64,000 nucleotides of DNA from Octopus vulgaris (GCA_951406725.2 OX597818.1:38316001-38380000), one strand, 5' to 3'; shown: positions 11,695-64,000, numbered from the stretch's first letter. Notes: generated by a model not told the origin, from the letters alone. Numbers and translations: made by a program.

Positions 11695-13619
11695 CATCAT
11701 CATCATCATCATTTAGCGTCCGTTTTCCATGCTAGCATGGGTTGGACGGTTCTACTGGGGTCTGTGAAGCCAGAAGGCTTCATCAGGCCCAGTCAAATCT
11801 GGCAGTGTTTCTACGGCGGGATGCCCTTCCTAACGCCAACCACTCCGTGAGTGTAGTGGGTGCTTTTTACGTGCCACCCGCACTGGTGCCAGACAGAGCT
11901 GGCAAACGGCCACGAACGGATGGTGCTTTTTATGTGCCACCGGCACGAGGGCCAGGCGAGGCTGGCAACGGACACGAAACGGGGCGGTGCTGGCAACGGT
12001 CGCGAAACGGAAAGTTCTCTTACATGCCACCGGCACTGGTAACACATCTGCAATTTCCATTGATCGATTTCGATTCTGATCCTCACTTGCCTCAATGGGT
12101 CTTCACAAGCAGAGTTTCGACATGCCACCGGCACTGGTAGCACATCCGCAATTTCCATTGATCGATTTCGATTCTGATCCTCACTTGCCTCAACACGTCT
12201 TCACAAGTAGAGTTTTGTGTCCCAAGAAGGGAAGGTATGCATACGTAGGCTGGCTCCATCCCATGTAGAAGGCCACGGGTTGTGGACTCACTTGTCCTGC
12301 CGGGTCTTCTCGCGCACAGCACACTTCCAGAGGTCTCGGTCTCTAGTCATTTCCTCAGTGAGACCTAAAGTTCGAAGGTCGTGCTTCACCACCTCGTCCC
12401 AGGTTTTCCTGGGTCTGCCTCTTCCACAGGTTCCCTCAACCGCTAGGGTGTGGCACTTTTTCACACAACTATCTTCATCCATTCTCGCCACATGACCATA
12501 CCAGCGCAAACGTCTCTCTTGCACACCACAACTGATGCTTCTTAGGTCCAGCTTTTCTCTCAAGGTACTTACACTCTGCCGAGTGTGAGTACCGGCATTA
12601 CACATCCATCGGAGCATACTGGCTTCATTTCTAGCGAGCTTACGCATATCCTCAGCAGTCACGGCCCATGTTTCACTGCCATGTAGCATGGCTGTTCGTA
12701 CACACGCATCATACAGTCTGCCTTTCACTCTGTGCGAGAGGCCTTTTGTCACCAGCAGAGGTAAGAGCTCTCTGAACTTTGCCCAAGCTATTCTTACTCT
12801 AGCAGTTACACTTTCAGCACACCCGCCCCCGCTGCTGACTTGGTCACCTAGGTAACGGAAACTATCAACTATTTCTAGTTTTTCTCCCTGGAAAGTGACG
12901 GAAGTTGGTCTCAGAGCATTTTCAGTGTTTATTGTTCCTGAGCATCTGCCACATACAAAAACCATCTTCCTAGTTAGCCTTCCTTTGACATTGCTGCATC
13001 TCTTATGTGTCCATAGCTTACACTTGGTGCATCTTATAGAGTTTCTACCTACACCTTTTCTACAGATCGAGCAGGGCCATCTACCTGAAGGTGTTTGTGA
13101 TTTGTCTACCTTCCTACTGATTACGACTTTGGTTTTAGCTAGATTGACTCTGAGGCCCTTCGATTCTAATCCTTGTTTCCACACCTGAAACTTCTCCTCC
13201 AGTTCTGATAGCGACTCAGCAATTAGAGCAAGGTCATCAGCATAGAGGAGCTCCCAAGGGCATCCTGTCTTGAATTCCTCCGTTATTGCCTGGAGGACTA
13301 TGATAAATAGGAGGGGGCTGAGTACTGAGCCTTGGTGGACCCCTACCTCTACCCGGAATTCTTCACTGTACTCATTTCCAACCCTCACCCTACTAGCAGC
13401 GTCCCTATACATGGCCCGCACAGCTCTCACTAACCATTCATCTATCCCTAGTTTTCTCATTGCCCACCAGATAAGGGATCGGGGGACCCTGTCGAAGGCT
13501 TTCTCCATGTCAACAAAAGCCAGGTACAGGGGCTTATCTTTGGCTAGGTATTTCTCCTGCAGCTGCCTTACCAGGAATATAGCATCAGTAGTACTTTTCC
13601 CTGGCACAAACCCAAACTG
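11695..13619 (-). mobile_element. Young 5'-truncated RTE-clade LINE in the INTS12 intron between coding exons 3 and 4 (same strand as the gene)
   Basis: Uninterrupted RT frame starting at QFGFVPG, about 590 nt of 3' UTR and a (GAT)n tail. No clear TSD seen. Confidence 0.92.
12288..13607 (-). CDS. RTE reverse transcriptase ORF (N-terminally truncated, 439 codons) with an internal PHD-type zinc finger
   Basis: FVDMEKAFD, GVHQGSVLSPLLF, YADD and FRYLG motifs, plus the RTE-typical RRLRWYGHVAR..GRGRPRKTW C-terminus. The endonuclease is missing, so it is non-autonomous. Confidence 0.85.
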   Translation of the reverse strand: MPGKSTTDAIFLVRQLQEKYLAKDKPLYLAFVDMEKAFDRVPRSLIWWAMRKLGIDEWLVRAVRAMYRDAASRVRVGNEYSEEFRVEVGVHQGSVLSPLLFIIVLQAITEEFKTGCPWELLYADDLALIAESLSELEEKFQVWKQGLESKGLRVNLAKTKVVISRKVDKSQTPSGRWPCSICRKGVGRNSIRCTKCKLWTHKRCSNVKGRLTRKMVFVCGRCSGTINTENALRPTSVTFQGEKLEIVDSFRYLGDQVSSGGGCAESVTARVRIAWAKFRELLPLLVTKGLSHRVKGRLYDACVRTAMLHGSETWAVTAEDMRKLARNEASMLRWMCNAGTHTRQSVSTLREKLDLRSISCGVQERRLRWYGHVARMDEDSCVKKCHTLAVEGTCGRGRPRKTWDEVVKHDLRTLGLTEEMTRDRDLWKCAVREKTRQDK

Positions 13620-13747
13620 TTTTAAATAATTTAAATAATTATAATATAGTAAATTATAATTATTTAAAGTTCTTACAAACTTCTAATACAATGAAATAAA
13701 GTATATGTTGATAATATAGTGGAGTCAGTCAAATTGATGATTGTCTT

Positions 13748-19895: not shown

Positions 19896-20024
19896 TGGAA
19901 GGCCTTTCCGTTGGGCAACAACTTCCTCAACCATTAGTCTGAGTTGATATTCTGCATCTTTACTTTTGGAATAAAGTAGCTTAAGCGCTTTTGTGAATAA
20001 TGGATCCAGTTCTAGAGTAGCCAT
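19896..20024 (-). CDS. INTS12: INTS12 first coding exon (integrator complex subunit 12)
   Basis: MATLELDPLFTKALKLLYSKSKDAEYQLRLMVEEVVAQRKGLP matches the INTS12 N-terminal LELDP-F-KAL--L-SKSKD motif. gtaag donor. A tttcag acceptor 13 nt upstream of the ATG (exon starts at 20037) implies a non-coding first exon. Confidence 0.93.
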
Positions 20025-20807
20025 TTTATTTGGGAGCCTGAAATTAGAAGATTAATTAGAAGTGAGAAGAATTTTTAACAAACAAAAGATCATCAACATA
20101 ATTTAATACAACTATAAATAACATATGTGTGTTCAAATTCCGCCAAGGTCGACTTTGCCTTTCATCCTTTCGGGGTCGATAAATTAAGTACTAGTTATGC
20201 ATTGGGGTCGATGTAATCGACTTAATCCCTTTGTCTGTCCTTGTTTGTCCCCTCTGTGTTTAGCCCCTTGTGGGCAATAAAGAAATAAATAACATATGTG
20301 TGTCATTTGAAAGTGGAGAGGCCAGCATGTCTAGTGGATTATGAAAGGATACTGGCAAGATATAGGATCACCCAAATTGGTAAGAGTGAGAACAAGAAAC
20401 CAGATAAAGCTAAAGACTACAAAAGGGTGTTTTAACACATTCTGTAATAATTACATAAGTCTAAAACTGGCCTCAGAGTAACCAGTAAACAATCTCTAAA
20501 TAAAGAATAAAGTTACCTCAATATCTCTTCCTAATACAGGATCATAAAACCAAAGTACAAAACAGCCAGAGTATTGTAATATTAATTAATGTTTTGGAAG
20601 GCATTAATAAATCTCCGAACGAGATGTAAACAGTAACCGCTCGACAACGTAAAGTGTACTAGCCATCTCAATGTGGCTAGCCACTGGGGGTGGGTGTTAC
20701 TGAAGCTTTTAGTCCCAGGAGATCATCGTCTCCAGCTGGCTTTAGACACACTTTCTGTGCCCTTCTGATATTCGCAAAGGGAGGTCATCCCCTCTCGAAA
20801 AACCAAA

Positions 20808-20866
20808 GTGATATATACAGACTATAGTTTCGAGGTTTTTGCCTTTCGTCAACGTATGGTAATCAC
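20808..20866 (-). ncRNA. Type I hammerhead ribozyme (U3.G8 core), family 1, minus copy
   Basis: GTGAT TAC CATACG TTGACGA AAGG CAAAAA CCTC GAAAC TATA GTC TGTATA T ATCAC. One mismatch each in stems I and II. Confidence 0.7.
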
Positions 20867-21019
20867 CAGTTTTCGATTTACGTTGTCGAGCAGTTACTGT
20901 TTACATCTTGTTCAGAGATTTATTAATGCTTTCAGACAGTTTTTCTAAATCAGTGACAGTGGTTGCTGGGAAAAACATTAAATAGATATTCGCAAACAGG
21001 TCTCCCCAATTGAAAACCG

Positions 21020-21078
21020 GTGATTACCATATGTTGACGAGAGGCAAAAACCTCGAAACTATAGTCCGTATGTATCAC
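21020..21078 (+). ncRNA. Type I hammerhead ribozyme (U3.G8 core), family 1, plus copy
   Basis: GTGAT TAC CATATG TTGACGA GAGG CAAAAA CCTC GAAAC TATA GTC CGTATG T ATCAC. All stems pair. Predicted cleavage after C21066. Confidence 0.8.
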
Positions 21079-22844
21079 TTAGGTTTTTCAAGAGGGGATG
21101 ACCTCCCTTTGAGAATATCAGAAGGGCACAGAAAGTGTGTCTAAAGCCAGCTGGAGACGATGATCTCCTGGGGCTAAAAGCTTCAGTAACACCCACCCCC
21201 AGTGGCTAGCCACATTGAGATGGCTAGTACGCTTTACGTTAAATTAATGTTTTGTTCTCTTGGAATACTGAACTCAATCACATAAAAACAAGAATTTAAG
21301 TGTTGAAGAAGTATCATCATCATCATCATCATCTTTTAACATCCTCTTTCCATGCTGGCATGGGTTGGATGGTTTAACTGATGACTGGCAAGCCAGGAGG
21401 CTGCACCAGACTCCAATCTATTCTGGCATGGTTTCTACAGCTGGATGCCCTTTCTAACAGCAACCACTCCAAGAATGTAGTGGGTGCTTTTTATGTGCCA
21501 CTGGCATAGGGGCCAGTCAGGTGGTACTGGCATCGACCATGCTTGAATGGTGCTTTTTACGCCATGCCAAACTAAATAATATGAAAATAAATATGGTGAT
21601 GAAATCATCATCATCATCATCGCTTGGTCTGTCTGTTACCATGACGACTGTTCCAGTCGATCCAATCAACTGAACGTCCTGATTGAGAAATTAATGTGCA
21701 AGTGGCTGAGCATGCCACAGACATGCATATCCTTCACATAGTTCTCAGGAAGATTCAGTGTGACACAGAATGTGACAAAGCGGTCTTCATAAGTTATTAT
21801 GATGATTGAATGCGGATCCCTATGACCCCAGGAGATAAAGCTGATCATTAAATGAGTCCTGGCAAGGGTAAGTATCCCCTCAATTCTGAAGGCAGTGGAT
21901 TGTTCAATGATGATAGGAAAACACCCAAAGAACTTGCTCTTTACCTTTGGGGTTAGAGACAGATACTGCATACAAAGCATTGTTAGCAACTCTTTTGCTC
22001 CATTACAATTCCTTAATACTGTTGAGCCAATGAGGAAGCATCTACTTGGTCATTCTACCTGCTAGAAATAGAAGCCAAAATTCCTTCAAATCAATGCTAT
22101 TGCCCTAAAAAAAAAAGGCAACAACACATTAAGCTATATAGTACTAGACATCCCTAAAAAGACAGAAAGGTCACAAATGGGATGTTTTTGATCATAGGTC
22201 TCTCCAACCAGGGCTAATATAGGACTAAACATCAGAAGGGATGACTGCATCTGAACTGAATAAGACACTGAAATACTGTAATCTGTTGATAAATTACATA
22301 CAGCCTAAGGCTTTTGAGATGTTCAGGTGGGGAGCTAGACCTCAGACAAAGAGGTTTTTGACTTCGTTTGGATCTCTGAAGTGAAATATGATGTTCAGAA
22401 GAGTGTCCAGCTGTTCTAATACCCTAACTTCACAGTCACCAGTAGGTTTGGCTGTTCTAAAACCTCAACCTCACAATCACTTGCAGTAATGCTGTGAGAG
22501 TTTTAGGTTGTCTGAAAAATATTTTAGTGTCCTTTTGAACAATGAAGGAATGTGCACGCCTCTCTTTGATCATTGACTGATTTCATGCTTTTTCTATTTA
22601 TTCCTTTTCTTACTGGCAGAAACGTTAGCACGCCGGGCGAAATGCTTAGCAGTATTTCGTCTGCCGCTATGTTCTGAGTTCAAATTCCGCCAAGGTTTAC
22701 TTTGCCTTTCATCCTTTCGGGGTTAATAAATTAAGTACCAGTTACACACTGGGGGTTGATGTAATCGACTTAATCCGTTTGTCTATCCTTGTTTGTCCCT
22801 TCTGTATTTAGCCCCTTGTGGGTAGTAAAGAAATAGATAATTTT

Positions 22845-24288
22845 GAACATCAATGGAATTTGTATCTTTGTGGTACCAGTGCCGGTGGCACACAAGAGAA
22901 AACCATCCGAAAGTGGCCGTAGCCAGTACCGCATCGACTGGCCTCCGTGCTGTGGGCACATGACAAACACCATCCGATCGTGGCCGTTCGCCAGCCTCAT
23001 CTAGCACCTGTGTCGGTGGCACATAAAAACACCATCCGAAGACCCGGCAAGACTAGTCAGGCCATAACCCATGGCCCCTACCTGGGACGTAGTCAGTCCA
23101 CCTGTGCATTCCTTCCTTCTTGTGACACTTGTGAAGACCTGTTGAGGCAAGTGAAAATCAAATCAAAATCAAAACAAATCAAAATAGATGAACATCAATG
23201 GAATCTGTATCTTTGTGGTACCAGTGCCGGTGGCACACAAGAGAACCATCCGAACGTGGCCGTAGCCAGTTCCGCATAGACCGGCCTCCGTGCTGTGGGC
23301 ACGTAACAAACACCATCCGATCATGGCCGTTCGCCAGCCTCATCTGGCACCTGTGTCGGTGGCACATAAAAACACCTTCCGAAGACCCGGCAAGACTAGT
23401 CAGTCCACCTGTGCATACCTTCCCTCTTGTGACACTTGTGAAGACCGGTTGAGGCAAGTGAAAATCAAATCAAATCAAATCAAAATAGACAAAATAGATG
23501 AACATCAATGGAATTTGTATCTTGTGGTACCAGTGCCTGTGGCACACAAGAAATCCATCAGTGCTGTAGTCAGTGCGGTGGGCACATGACAAACACCATC
23601 CGATCGTGGCCGTTCGCCAGCCTCATCTAGCACCTGTGTCGGTGGCACATAAAAACACCATCCGAAGACCCGGCAAGACTAGTCAGGCCATAACCCATGG
23701 CCCCTACCTGGGACGTAGTCAGTCCACCTGTGCATACCTTCCTTCTTGTGACACTTGTGAAGACCTGTTGAGGCAAGTGAAAATCAAAACAAATCAAAAT
23801 AGATGAACATCAATGGAATTTGTATCTTTGTGGTACCAGTGCCGGTGGCACGTGGCACACAAGAAAACCATCTGAACGTGGCCGTAGCCAGTACCGCATC
23901 GACTTGCCTCCGTGCTGTGGGCACGTAACAAGCACCTTCCGATCGTGGCCGTTTGCCAGCCTCATCTGGCACCTGTGTCGGTGGCACATAAAAACACCAT
24001 CCGAGCGTGGCCGTCTGCCAGCCTCGTCTGGTACCTGTGTCGGTGGCACATAAAAAACACCATCCGAGCGTGGCCATTTGCCAGCCTCGTCTGGCACCTG
24101 TGTCGGTGGCACATAAAATCACCCACTACACTCTTGGAGTGGTTGGCGTTAGGAAGGGCATCCAGCTGTAGAAACACTGCCAGATCTGACTGGACTGGTG
24201 CAGCTTTCGGGCTCCCCAGACCCCAGTTGAACCGTCCAACCCATGCTAGCATGGAAAGCGGACGTTAAATGATGATGATGATGATGAT
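22845..24288 (+). repeat. Tandem array of four 305-345 bp RTE 3' UTR segments ending in one RTE 3' terminus
   Basis: Units begin GAACATCAATGGAAT near 22845, 23190, 23500 and 23805. Single terminal core and (GAT)n tail. Confidence 0.85.
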
Positions 24289-24925
24289 GTTCTTTTCTCG
24301 TAGTGAAAGTAGTGGGAGCATGTGGTTTAGTGGTTGGGTATTTGGTTCACGATTGTAAGGTCGGGAGTTCGATAACTGGCAGCATGTTGTGCCCTTGAGC
24401 AAGATATTTTATTTCACGTTGCTCTTGTCAACTCAGCTGGCAAAAATGAGTTGCATCTGTATTTCAAAGGACCAGCTTTGTTACAATGTGTCACGCTGAA
24501 CTTCCCTGAGAACTACATGAAGGGTATGCATGTCTGGGGTGCTCAGCCACTTGAATATTAATTTCTCAAACAGGTTATTCCGTTGATCAGCTCAACTGGA
24601 ATCCTTGTCATCGTAATTGACAGAGTGCCAGTTCTTTAAGACTCAGAAACGAAATTTCTTAATTATCACACAAGTTATAACAATATCTTTTAAAAAGTAT
24701 TTCTCAACAATCACTCACAGATACACTGTATGAGGCAATAATCATTTAAGTATACAGTTTAACAGAACTATGTATGAAAAGGCAGATTAACAATTCCCTC
24801 CTACATTGATCCTCCAACCTATATGCACCTAGAACACTTATTGACATCTGACAACAATAAAATCAAACCTAGAAGCATTTAAATTCAGAATGGAGGGTAT
24901 TATATATATATATGCAGCACGAAGC

Positions 24926-24976
24926 TTTGTCAGTGAACAGGTCGCGGTCTCAAAGCGACAAAAATATTTTGACAAA
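24926..24976 (+). ncRNA. Putative degenerate minimal hammerhead with G3-C8 core, in an about 200-bp insert within (TA)n
   Basis: TTTGTCA GTGAACA G GTCGC GGTCTCAAA GCGAC AAAA A TA TTT TGACAAA. 7-bp stem I and 5-bp stem II; the G12 position is A in this copy. Confidence 0.5.
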
Positions 24977-25115
24977 TTAAATTTAAATGTTGAAGTGAAC
25001 CTAACGGTTTTGTATGTTTCTTAAATGGCTTATAAACACCTTCTATGCTGCAATTGTTTTTGTTCCAGCACAGGATCTCAGATCAAGTCACTCACTATGC
25101 AAGTACATCTCCGTA

Positions 25116-25147
<32 letters not shown>

Positions 25148-25863
25148 ATGTATGTAAATATGTATGTATATGCATATATATAAAATCCTTTGTCTGTTTG
25201 TTCCCAATGCATTCTCAAACAGGTCAACCAAATCAAATCAAATTTTACATGGTAATAGTATCAAACCCCGTAAGTGTCAACATGTAATTTTATTTTTATA
25301 TTTCAATTGAAACAATGGTATTACATGTCAAAAGTGAAAGAATAACATCTATATTGTAATGTGATATAATATTGTTTCACTTTTATTCTGTCACTTTAGT
25401 TCTAATGTGATAAACCTATAATATTGTTTCACTTTTAATTCTAATTATATCCTGTCAAATAATGTTATTCCACTTTTATTTTTTTTCACTTTTAATTCAT
25501 ATTATATCCTAATATCAACAACATTACACATCAGTAACTTTACAGCCATGATAGTGGAATGGTTTGTCAAGTGACCTGCTAAAAATGGCAGTCGTGTCTC
25601 CTTCAAATTATATCCTACTCTCCTAAAAATGAAAGAACGCAATGGATAATGAAGTCCAACACACCATGGAATTTAGACGGGACGGTCGCAGTAGGTACAC
25701 CTTTGATAATAGGCTTGCGCGATCAAGACGACAACTAAATAATATAGAGCCAATAGGGGAGTATCTACGTGTCGCTCGACCTGCTTGAAAAAGATGTCAA
25801 ATCAGCTTCAAATTACATCCTATTATCTACAAACAAAAATGGGGGATATACATTACCTGTCCC

Positions 25864-26039
25864 GGTACTAGTCGTGATTAGTCGATCCTTACTTCGTGTT
25901 TTTGTGTATTATTTACAAAAATGATTTATTTTGTGTTTTATTTACTTTGCTAGGTTGTCGTTATAGGATCGACTAGTCACGACCAGCTAGCTCGGATGCG
26001 CGAGTATACGCACCGGGACCACTCTTCTTAAATAGTACC
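25864..26039. mobile_element. Merlin-like MITE, internally deleted copy of the 60763-61030 family
   Basis: GGTAC...GTACC termini with an 8-bp TSD CCTGTCCC / CATGTCCC (1 mismatch). Confidence 0.7.
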
Positions 26040-26884
26040 CATGTCCCTTAAAAGACAGCATGGACAAGATAGGAACATGTTCGATCATGGGTTTCCTCCA
26101 CCAGGGTCGAACTGGGGCTAAACAACAACTAAAACTAAGAGGAACGTCACATCAACGAATCGAATCCGATCGCTTATCACTTCTGTTTTAAAATTGAACT
26201 TGAAAAGAACAAATTCCTTTTCTCGTGTAAATTTGGGACGTGTAATTTAAGAAATTGATATCACAGAATCACAAAGCAAATTACTCTCCTATACAAATTT
26301 AAATATATACAAACTAAAGCATCCCAGAAGTGAATAGAATTATAGAAGATATAGAGTTAGCTCACATGTCAAGTTTGGAGTAAATTACCAAGAGATTTAT
26401 AAAAGCAAAGGTTATTGTTATTGTTTAGCCCCTGATGACTCCTGACTGAGCTAACATACTGATCAAAGGCATTTCAGCTACGACTACCCGCCGTCCTTTT
26501 CTGAAAAATCTCATTATCAAAATGTATATTTCTTTACTACCCACAAGGGGCTAAAGACAGAGGGGACAAACAAGGACAGACGAAGGGATTAAGTCGATTA
26601 CATCGACCCCGGTGCGTAACTGGTACTTAATTTATCGACCCCGAAAGGATAAAAGGCAAAGTCGACCTCGGCGTGGTCTTAACATGTCACTTTCAAGACA
26701 AATGACAAAGAAACATCAGCCTTATAATAAATAACAGCGATGGTAGAAGACAACAGTGGACATGTAAGAACTTAAACGACCAAATAAAATTAGAGGTATC
26801 CTTACAAAGATCTCTTAATTCCAGTTTCAATTTTATTTTGCCTCTCAAAGACGATCCGTCTCTCACCAGAAGTTTACATGAAAA

Positions 26885-37548: not shown

Positions 37549-37909
37549 GTAAGTTTCCTTTTGTTAGTGGTCTATATTATTTTTCTGTTTTTTCAGTGTT
37601 TTATATTTAGTATGTAAGAATAGTGATGGATAATTGCCTCTTTTAACCATGAAAATTGGAACCTGTGTCAAAAATGTTGAAAGTGAACTATATTCAGCAT
37701 GAGAAATTACTACCAGTATCCAAGTTTTGAACTGTTTAGTTAAAAAAAAATAATTTAAAAAATCTGTGAGTGAAACTATAACGATCCATATTTTCTTTAT
37801 CTGTTCAAAACATGCTTGTTATAGCATCTTAAGTTTATTATTGTTTTTGACAAGACTTTACTTCTCAACATACTTTTTGATCTAAATTTCTTTCCTTATT
37901 TTATTTCAG

Positions 37910-38223
37910 CGGAAGCATCTCTAAATCCATTTGGAGTTATGGCGAGTCAACCAGTAAATGTATCACAAATTGGAATATCTGTTGAACCACTTCAAGACTT
38001 ATCTCAGCAGACACCTGCAACATCTGCAGCAGTGTCAAACCTTGAACCATTTATGGATTTCTCAAAGAAAATGGTTGAAAATCTGTTCAATTTTGCTTCG
38101 TCATTTGCTTCTAAAACTCCTATGAATCCATCCGAATCATATATTCCATTTAGTACTCTTGAAAAGTGGTACAATAACTTTCTTCGAAAGATGGAGCAAG
38201 ATCCCTATTTCTGGCGATCGTAG
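37910..38223 (+). CDS. HIKESHI: HIKESHI exon 4 (last coding exon)
   Basis: tttcag acceptor. Encodes ..QIGISVEP..KMVENLFNFASSF..YIPFSTLEKWYNNFLRKMEQDPYFWRS*. Total CDS 579 nt, 192 aa. Confidence 0.95.
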
Positions 38224-62942: not shown

Positions 62943-62984
<42 letters not shown>

Positions 62985-63141
62985 GTTATCGCCATACTAA
63001 TATGGCATTCTTATAAAAATAAGAATAAAGCTGTCCGCTTATTAGCTCCATGAGGCCATCGCCTTAAGTTAGCTATTTGATACACAAACTGTATCCATAT
63101 AACCTTCGAACAAGGGAGGTCAGTCGCTCCACACTACTTGA

Positions 63142-63197
63142 CCGGTAGCTACAGACGCGTTTCGGGGTATTGCCCCTTTTCAATGCAGCGTAGCCAG
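63142..63197 (-). ncRNA. Type I hammerhead ribozyme (U3-A8 core), family 2, minus copy
   Basis: CTGGC TAC GCTGCA TTGAAAA GGGG CAATA CCCC GAAAC GC GTC TGTAGC T ACCGG. Confidence 0.8.
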
Positions 63198-63593
63198 ACC
63201 AGTAGGTGTCGCTTCTGACAATCTCTGTTCAAAGGTTTTATTTACCTAGCTTCGGTGGAATACATCCACTTGTTTTCAATAATAGAAATATTAAATATTA
63301 AAATTATTATAACCTTGTTCGAAGGTTATATGGATACAGTTTGGTTATCAAATAGCTAACTTAAGGCGATGGCCTCATGGAGCTAATAAGCGGACAGCTT
63401 TATTCTTATTTTTATAAGAATGCCATATTAGTATGGCGATAACTATTATTTTCCGGGAACGCTGCCGTTGTTCTCTTTTAGAGAGACTTAGTAATTTTAA
63501 TATTTCTATTATTGAAAACAAGTGGATGTATTCCACCGAAGCTAGGTAAATAAAACCTTTGAACAGAGATTGTCAGAAGCGACACCTACTGGT

Positions 63594-63649
63594 CTGGCTA
63601 CGCTGCATTGAAAAGGGGCAATACCCCGAAACGCGTCTGTAGCTGCCGG
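63594..63649 (+). ncRNA. Type I hammerhead ribozyme (U3-A8 core), family 2, plus copy
   Basis: CTGGC TAC GCTGCA TTGAAAA GGGG CAATA CCCC GAAAC GC GTC TGTAGC T GCCGG. All stems pair. Predicted cleavage after C63637. Confidence 0.82.
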
Positions 63650-64000
63650 TCAAGTAGTGTGGAGCGACTGACCTCCCTTGTTCGAAGGTTATATGGATAC
63701 AGTTTGTGTATCAAATAGCTAACTTAAGGCGATGGCCTCATGGAGCTAATAAGCGGACAGCTTTATTCTTATTTTTATAAGAATGCCATATTAGTATGGC
63801 GATAACTATTATTTTCCGGGAACGCTGCCGTTGTTCTCTTTTAGAGAGACTTAGTAATTTTAATATTTCTATTATATATATATAATTAATTGTTATCGCC
63901 ATATTAATATGGCATTCTTATAGATATAAGAATAATCACTGCCGCTGGTCAGCTCCATGAGGCCACCGCCTTAAGATAGCTATTGATACACACTGTTGTA

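Follow-up and report, generated by a model that had tools for sequence, protein, structure and literature searches.

A dispersed 356-nt hammerhead repeat of Octopus vulgaris, a likely non-LTR retrozyme likely mobilized by Penelope-like elements

The retrozyme class, a mollusc example of the same size as the repeat described here and a link between retrozymes and Penelope-like elements (PLEs) are already published. Mobilization of retrozymes by the PLE machinery is proposed, mainly for vertebrates, in sections of a recent preprint (Li, Clavereau and Pollet 2026, bioRxiv 10.64898/2026.07.22.740005), and a 2020 review states, in its passage on the subject, that retrozyme repeats show no motif indicating an autonomous partner (PMC7761336). 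For EN+ PLEs, the relevant part of Craig 2021 (PMC8557442) lists a 30–40-bp tail at one end, inverted arms and a bias for microsatellites, and the corresponding parts of Frangieh 2024 (PMC11167929) place the tail between two internal start sites of reverse transcription, describe it as unique to PLEs, and have both target strands nicked and extended at AT-rich DNA. As regards cephalopods, the giant squid genome paper, where it mentions hammerheads, simply counts 235 loci. Literature searches on octopus and cephalopods gave no description of such a family; repeat databases, subscription papers and supplements could hold one. Arguments about which autonomous element moves animal retrozymes still draw on co-occurrence and pLTR homology; the octopus family described here shows a PLE-specific tail at many insertions.

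The locus lies in a 64,000-nt stretch of Octopus vulgaris DNA (GCA_951406725.2, OX597818.1:38316001-38380000), the whole of which we call the window. We read it, with a probability of about 0.84, as a dispersed copy of a non-coding 356-nt type I hammerhead family that is likely a non-LTR retrozyme and likely mobilized by PLEs. The insertion is bracketed by a 13-bp TSD, AATTAATGTTTTG, whose left copy (20584–20596, plus strand) is 100% identical to the right copy (21242–21254, plus strand), as an earlier note made from the sequence alone had proposed; one additional A at 21241 stands ahead of the right copy. Between them, an inverted, 5'-truncated arm on the minus strand (20597–20878, monomer positions 132 through 356 to 57) has its 3' end facing outward, and a forward arm on the plus strand (20877–21240, monomer positions 1 through 356 to 8, i.e. 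a full 356-nt monomer plus 8 nt, 364 bp) finishes at what we call the short 3' end. The two arms are 94.7% identical (267/282), and their coordinates overlap slightly, by a few bases, where they meet. The inverted copy had been recognized as partial in the earlier note but was ended at 20874; arm mapping carries it to 20878 and reproduces the monomer period of 356. The same note saw no credible ORF, and the longest ATG ORF in the tripled monomer is indeed 37 aa. The GC content is 0.40 across the hammerhead stretch and the surrounding 2 kb (retrozymes lie below 50%), and the predicted 356-nt circle would be strongly self-paired (z = −5.1). An Rfam match to MIR821 at the locus was discarded as an artefact of the long inverted repeat.

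The forward arm contains a type I hammerhead at 21020–21078 (plus strand), recognized by Rfam HH9 and by covariation, in which three helices are closed by stem I, with a UAC/U internal loop in stem I and a CAAAAA loop on stem II providing the loop I/II contact motifs; the cut is predicted after C21066. The segment matched the whole Rfam Hammerhead_HH9 model (E 6.1e-9) at 38.5 bits, below the gathering score of 52, and a scan of the longer stretch 20400–21500 against Rfam did not report the forward hammerhead. In the comparison with RF02275 and RF00163, the further scores of 21.7 and 13.3 were likewise under the gathering threshold of 34, while the UUACC bulge and the CAAAAA loop agree with the HH9 (RF02275) consensus. 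The fold has a z-score of −2.63, equaled by 2 of 200 shuffles, with pair probabilities of 0.77–1.0 in stems I and II. The core, UUGACGA (21034–21040, plus strand), carries a U3.G8 wobble in place of C3-G8, a feature of 44 rows from 40 loci; the 3-8 pair of the window subfamily is thus not Watson-Crick, and the remaining core positions are canonical. Stem III (21058–21065, plus strand) is palindromic, forming two pairs and a tetraloop in the monomer, where its predicted probability is near zero, and an 8-bp duplex between two units. Such a stem had been taken to imply dimeric cleavage. The conserved palindrome is confirmed, but obligatory dimers do not follow, as two pairs with a tetraloop is the invertebrate type of stem III and, in the published accounts concerned, cleavage as a monomer is reported for most invertebrate motifs; dimer formation is likely to help cleavage and need not be obligatory. 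The earlier statement that each copy has a hammerhead fold holds for the forward arm. The second hammerhead (20808–20866, minus strand) is damaged: stem II has an A10.1.C11.1 mismatch at its base, stem I has a C.A mismatch, and with z = −0.62 the copy folds no better than chance.

The insertion had also been placed in the presumed first intron of INTS12. Its intronic position stands: contigs of all four runs are spliced across, joining 20036 to 26805, and define a 5' UTR intron of about 6.8 kb on the minus strand (20038–26805, with CT..AC ends), between the 5' exon and the first coding exon, whose start codon is at 20024. The gene name fared less well, as searches of PDB and Atlas for it returned nothing relevant, and INTS12 is a putative assignment by motif resemblance. 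Because the intron is on the minus strand, the host pre-mRNA carries the damaged hammerhead in sense and the intact one in antisense orientation; with the intact ribozyme antisense and the intron spliced out, the insertion is probably neutral for the host gene. Elsewhere in the window, an exon of a Hikeshi-like gene lies at 37825–38223 on the plus strand (Pfam PF21057, E 6e-20), and a 464-aa open frame at 12288–13682 on the minus strand encodes a reverse transcriptase of LINE type in which a PHD-like finger is embedded.

A first look at the 2.8-Gb genome gave 2,790 candidate copies, 40 of which were scored. Exact motif matches numbered 144 for the hammerhead pattern and 566 and 2,110 for two tail patterns, with no match for any reversed control, which puts the family at two thousand copies or more. 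The analyzed set comprises 107 loci (119 fetched, minus 11 duplicates and one array locus). Copies are dispersed and nearly throughout 0.2–2.4 units long, and 47 of the 167 arms exceed one unit, in a sample whose length and 5'-end statistics are biased because loci were picked by full length, hammerhead or tail motifs. The tandem arrays that the earlier note had asked after exist, as seen in these arms and in a ten-unit array at L151:771-4380, which belongs to a U3-A8 subfamily, has units 99.2% identical on average and is a candidate source locus. The family combines several of the features by which non-LTR retrozymes are recognized: a 150–450-bp unit with a type I hammerhead, tandems, no coding capacity, GC below 50% and TSDs of more than 4 bp. 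For a sister family, whose unit is about 70% identical throughout, there are 2,646 candidates, and further subfamilies have the tail in common. At L080:902-7977, about 7 kb of other sequence lies within a retrozyme arm, with an element duplication of about 14 bp at the break. The window itself holds a second hammerhead repeat family of the same anatomy (62979–63875, period 363) within (TA)n, with an inverted arm at 62979–63300 and a forward arm at 63313–63875 that are 99% identical, a tail of about 63 nt at one end only and a U3-A8 core; its homology to the main family is distant (profile E 6e-13).

Over the 107 loci, 3' ends cluster at monomer positions ~8 and ~55, about 47 nt apart. The 53 two-arm inverted insertions have one tailed and one short end in 40 cases, two short ends in one and two tailed ends in none, the other 12 having one irregular end; 40 of the 41 scorable cases therefore have one end of each kind. 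Among 60 single arms, 39 are short, 14 tailed and 7 irregular. A hand count of the loci that had not been chosen by their tail found 27 of 28 scorable two-arm cases mixed (P ~1e-7), and 50 further loci, retrieved with tail-containing queries, added 17 two-arm cases, 11 mixed, 6 irregular and none alike (11/11 scorable). In the window, the segment between the two fixed 3' ends of the histogram, monomer 9–57, occupies 20597–20645 on the minus strand and consists of a small hairpin followed by TTATTAAT/TTATTATT; among diverged relatives, the tail bin 41–60 has an identity of 0.84, the highest of the 18 monomer bins. As judged from these sequences, the read-through of the inverted arm to position 57 is the Penelope tail, a putative second fixed priming site, and this points to PLE enzymes. 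The 107 loci also show the PLE-type traits of an inverted 5'-truncated arm, partial tandems and AT-rich or microsatellite targets: a (TA)5 flank accompanies 36 of 113 insertions against 145 of 2,140 controls, and among insertions outside (TA)n, 36 of 77 have a TSD of at least 8 bp, mostly 10–15 bp, against 10 of 297 controls.

The relatives also allowed us to follow the ribozyme through time. The covariation alignment holds 101 of 144 extracted hammerhead segments, mostly identical and a few gapped rows having been left out. The core and stems are retained across the family, with 94.1% of cells paired (slid controls, 23–52%) and double changes in 11 of 20 pairs, counts that are not independent events because the copies are related. 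Distinct rows have C-G at the 3-8 pair in 36 cases, U-A in 35, U.G in 26 and no pair in two, and the center of the stem III palindrome varies between G-C, A-U and C-G. A tree of 134 hammerhead segments, rooted at the midpoint between the two families and with bootstrap values not fully settled, is ladder-like, with C3-G8 first, then U3-A8 (96/95), and all 44 U3.G8 copies inside (98/88). On this tree the core series is C3-G8, U3-A8, U3.G8, and as the U3.G8 copies are nested within the U3-A8 group, the window type appears derived and subfamily-wide (44 rows, 40 loci); the variant U3 core that the earlier note had seen in the window is therefore real, and instead of being confined to one insertion it is the derived state of a whole subfamily. 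CpG decay as the source of U3.G8 was ruled out on account of the same nesting and because A8>G8 creates a CpG. In the youngest U3.G8 sub-branch, distal stem I contains a T.T mismatch, perhaps a sign of decay. The available parts of the literature describe U3-A8 as a known natural covariation (PMC3088659, PMC4209133) and cite a UUGACGA core with a two-base insertion from halophiles (PMC7151607); in contrast to that example, the octopus family has three 3-8 states in succession in one repeat lineage. Six loci (L130, L131, L135, L138, L141 and L149) represent intermediate subfamilies with cores CCGACGA, CTGAAGA or CCGAAGA and, like the sister family, a basal C.A mismatch in stem II. U3 cores recur in this genome across several PLE and retrozyme families that are unrelated to one another.

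The earlier note had argued that the template was circular or tandem. In the sample described above, 5' ends are spread round the unit: 4 of 166 lie near the predicted cut, where 6.1 would be expected. Of 167 arms, 125 run across that cut, 8 of them twice. The indifference of 5' ends to the cut leaves a circle or an uncut multimer as template, and both fit the crossings alike; a cut linear monomer cannot have templated the arms that cross, in a sample that favors hammerhead-bearing copies. We put the circle at slightly better than even odds and the uncut multimer at slightly worse. Repeats within an insertion are usually of one subfamily, which fits a circle and a homogeneous array or uncut multimer alike: rare variants are shared within 17 of 53 loci, and diagnostic differences amount to 11% in tandem and 8.5% in inverted repeated parts, compared with 33% between loci. 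The mixed exception, L005:1501-2076, is a single arm that joins units of an old C3 and a young U3.G8 subfamily, which differ at 26 of 42 diagnostic sites. Joins of unit end to unit start occur in contigs of three of four runs, and genomic tandems give an identical join; contigs of the presumed-RNA runs cover all 28 bins, and strand, ends, level and circularity are unreadable from them. Part of the stretch occurs in runs that carry five organism codes, none of those listed being recorded as RNA.

These data suggest the following route. A tandem source locus would be transcribed and its hammerheads would cut between units, aided by pairing of the palindromic stem III, after which monomers would be closed into circles by ligation, as with the retrozymes of mussel and axolotl. 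A PLE protein would then bind near the tail and nick the two strands of AT-rich DNA at points about 12 bp from each other, and reverse transcription would be primed internally, at monomer ~8 for one strand and at ~55 for the other; where both cDNAs were kept and joined at their truncated 5' ends, an inverted two-arm insertion would result. Compared with its ancestral cores, U3.G8 likely cleaves at a lower rate, a loss that would not have stopped the spread of the subfamily. More tentatively, at somewhat less than even odds, we suggest that the 356-nt RNA is itself the whole cis-signal for two-site priming by PLEs, with one site per target strand and without homology to a partner pLTR, and that the youngest subfamily spread after the core had slid from C-G through U-A to U.G.

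The indifference of the 5' ends to the cut, together with the many arms that cross it, is equally what would be seen if the repeat were a PLE-dependent, SINE-like element with a vestigial hammerhead, copied only from uncut tandem transcripts and with no U3.G8 circles. This alternative differs from the active-ribozyme reading in ribozyme activity alone. The arm at L005 that joins two subfamilies is in its favor, as are the part of Frangieh 2024 (PMC11167929) in which PLE insertion in vitro is independent of ribozyme cleavage and the portion of a preprint in which just one of nine Xenopus dimers cleaved. Arms that cross the cut are, however, also expected from a circle, and the palindrome of stem III was kept through a double change immediately before U3.G8 arose, with both inner stem I pairs retained in 44 of 44 U3.G8 rows, where some of the changes are at CpG sites. 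We therefore regard a vestigial hammerhead as unlikely.

If PLE enzymes move the family, an autonomous partner might be sought next to it. No PLE protein match was found beside 122 family loci, and the three matches at 60 more are neighbors or a mid-ORF junction; the copies hence do not all flank a PLE ORF, which the earlier note had set down as the mark of a Penelope pLTR. The contrast it drew between retrozyme and Penelope is in fact largely false, as a tail footprint without an adjoining ORF makes the family likely both. Its broader description, of a retrozyme-like, non-autonomous element that entered by target-primed insertion with inversion, agrees with the copy number, the tandem arrays, the 10–15-bp TSDs and the lack of an adjoining PLE ORF, and the RT and GIY-YIG ORF between pLTRs of an autonomous EN+ PLE is not part of the family. 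The genome does have young PLEs with intact 781-aa RT plus GIY-YIG ORFs, whose linker, as judged by eye without a tree, has a cysteine motif of the Neptune/Nematis type, and its PLEs have minimal hammerheads and tails of their own of about 28–38 nt. When 98 PLE loci (78, then 20) from the three main families were searched with the family profile, no pLTR homologous to the monomer was found, and profile matches near these loci were independent neighboring insertions only. The two youngest PLE families sampled have (TA)n at 47 of 50 ends, a far stricter targeting than that of the retrozyme.

The copies could nonetheless be 5'-truncated pLTR fragments of an unsampled autonomous PLE, with the tandem units as partial-tandem artefacts. 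Their tail and inversion anatomy is the same as that of autonomous PLEs, PLE sampling was thin (150 of 6,136 GIY-YIG candidates scored), and in the relevant part of a preprint 24 of 57 Xenopus retrozyme families matched annotated TEs, 21 of 22 of these being PLEs. This origin is nevertheless improbable: what lies upstream of a unit is the end of another unit and no ORF, in arms that exceed one unit in 47 of 167 cases, up to 2.4 units, and in the ten-unit array; the 122 loci are free of PLE matches, those at the 60 more being of the kinds described; and the family hammerhead is of the canonical loop-loop type, whereas the sampled pLTRs have minimal ones.

Several candidate partners were set aside. 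A match behind the PLE ORF at L161 (74% identity) is an independent sister-family insertion, since the other 29 copies of that PLE end ~600 bp earlier, and L175, considered as a PLE-retrozyme two-arm chimera, is a complete insertion separated by (TA)n. At L223:886-1740, a fragment with residues 363–508 of an older PLE runs straight into the 5' end of a sister-family copy; a (TA)n tract lies on either side, and the 3' part of the PLE is missing after the fusion; this single case is possibly a template-switch chimera, or else an insertion plus a deletion. The PLE family from which that fragment comes has a pLTR unrelated to the monomer and was dropped as partner. As further observations, a very young PLE family (L161:4295-4350 and L171-L200; 1,283 candidates, best copies ~100% identical over 511 bp) has in its pLTR a minimal hammerhead-like motif with core CCGAAGA (U4C) and a tail of about 28 nt, a second young family (L153-L160) has intact 781-aa ORFs and a U3-A8 minimal hammerhead, and the retrozyme tail appears to resemble one PLE tail loosely (hairpin, then TTATTAT).

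Inversions and 10–15-bp TSDs occur with LINEs too, and LINE reverse transcriptase fragments are present in the window, so a LINE (e.g. the RTE-type element there) might have mobilized the family by L1-style twin priming. We consider this very improbable, because twin priming by L1 leaves arms that do not overlap and a single fixed 3' end, as opposed to the overlapping arms and two fixed ends, one per arm, seen here, and the unit has no poly(A) or simple-repeat 3' end. Spread of a satellite at the DNA level with an incidental hammerhead, for which the one long homogeneous array might speak, is scarcely credible given covariation far above the slid controls and dispersed insertions of 0.2–2.4 units that have TSDs, stop at fixed 3' ends and vary at their 5' ends, barring an artefact of sampling in these end statistics.

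The near-strict rule of one site per arm narrows the range of models for the formation of PLE tails and inversions, and the octopus retrozyme could serve the existing in vitro PLE assay as a minimal RNA substrate. Ready constructs for asking how much ribozyme activity retrozymes need are available in the C3-G8, U3-A8 and U3.G8 subfamilies. Were the two-site cis-signal reading true, the insertions would amount to proof by footprint that the retrozymes of animals use PLE enzymes to move, and the subfamilies a natural allelic series testing the need of cleavage and circles for mobility.

Compared with EN+ PLEs as described in the relevant parts of PMC8557442 and PMC11167929, the octopus family has the same partial tandems, inverted 5'-truncated arm, one-end tail, two internal priming sites and AT-rich and microsatellite targets; it differs in having no RT/GIY-YIG ORF, a tail of about 47 nt as against 30–40, and a canonical instead of a minimal hammerhead. 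The retrozymes of the Li 2026 preprint likewise include monomers, dimers and multimers side by side, with many copies intronic, in the sections concerned. The case made there is one of co-occurrence and pLTR homology, with no mollusc among the classes named in those sections, whereas here it is one of an insertion footprint without a pLTR homologue. With the metazoan non-LTR retrozymes of Cervera and de la Pena 2020 (PMC7229834), as far as that account characterizes them, the octopus family shares a unit close to that of the mussel (~350–390 bp), GC below 50%, a canonical type I hammerhead whose stem III is short and palindromic, a tandem arrangement of copies, long TSDs, the lack of an ORF and a predicted circle with strong self-pairing; it is set apart from them by its U3.G8 core, its mostly dispersed insertions of one to two units and its explicit PLE tail.
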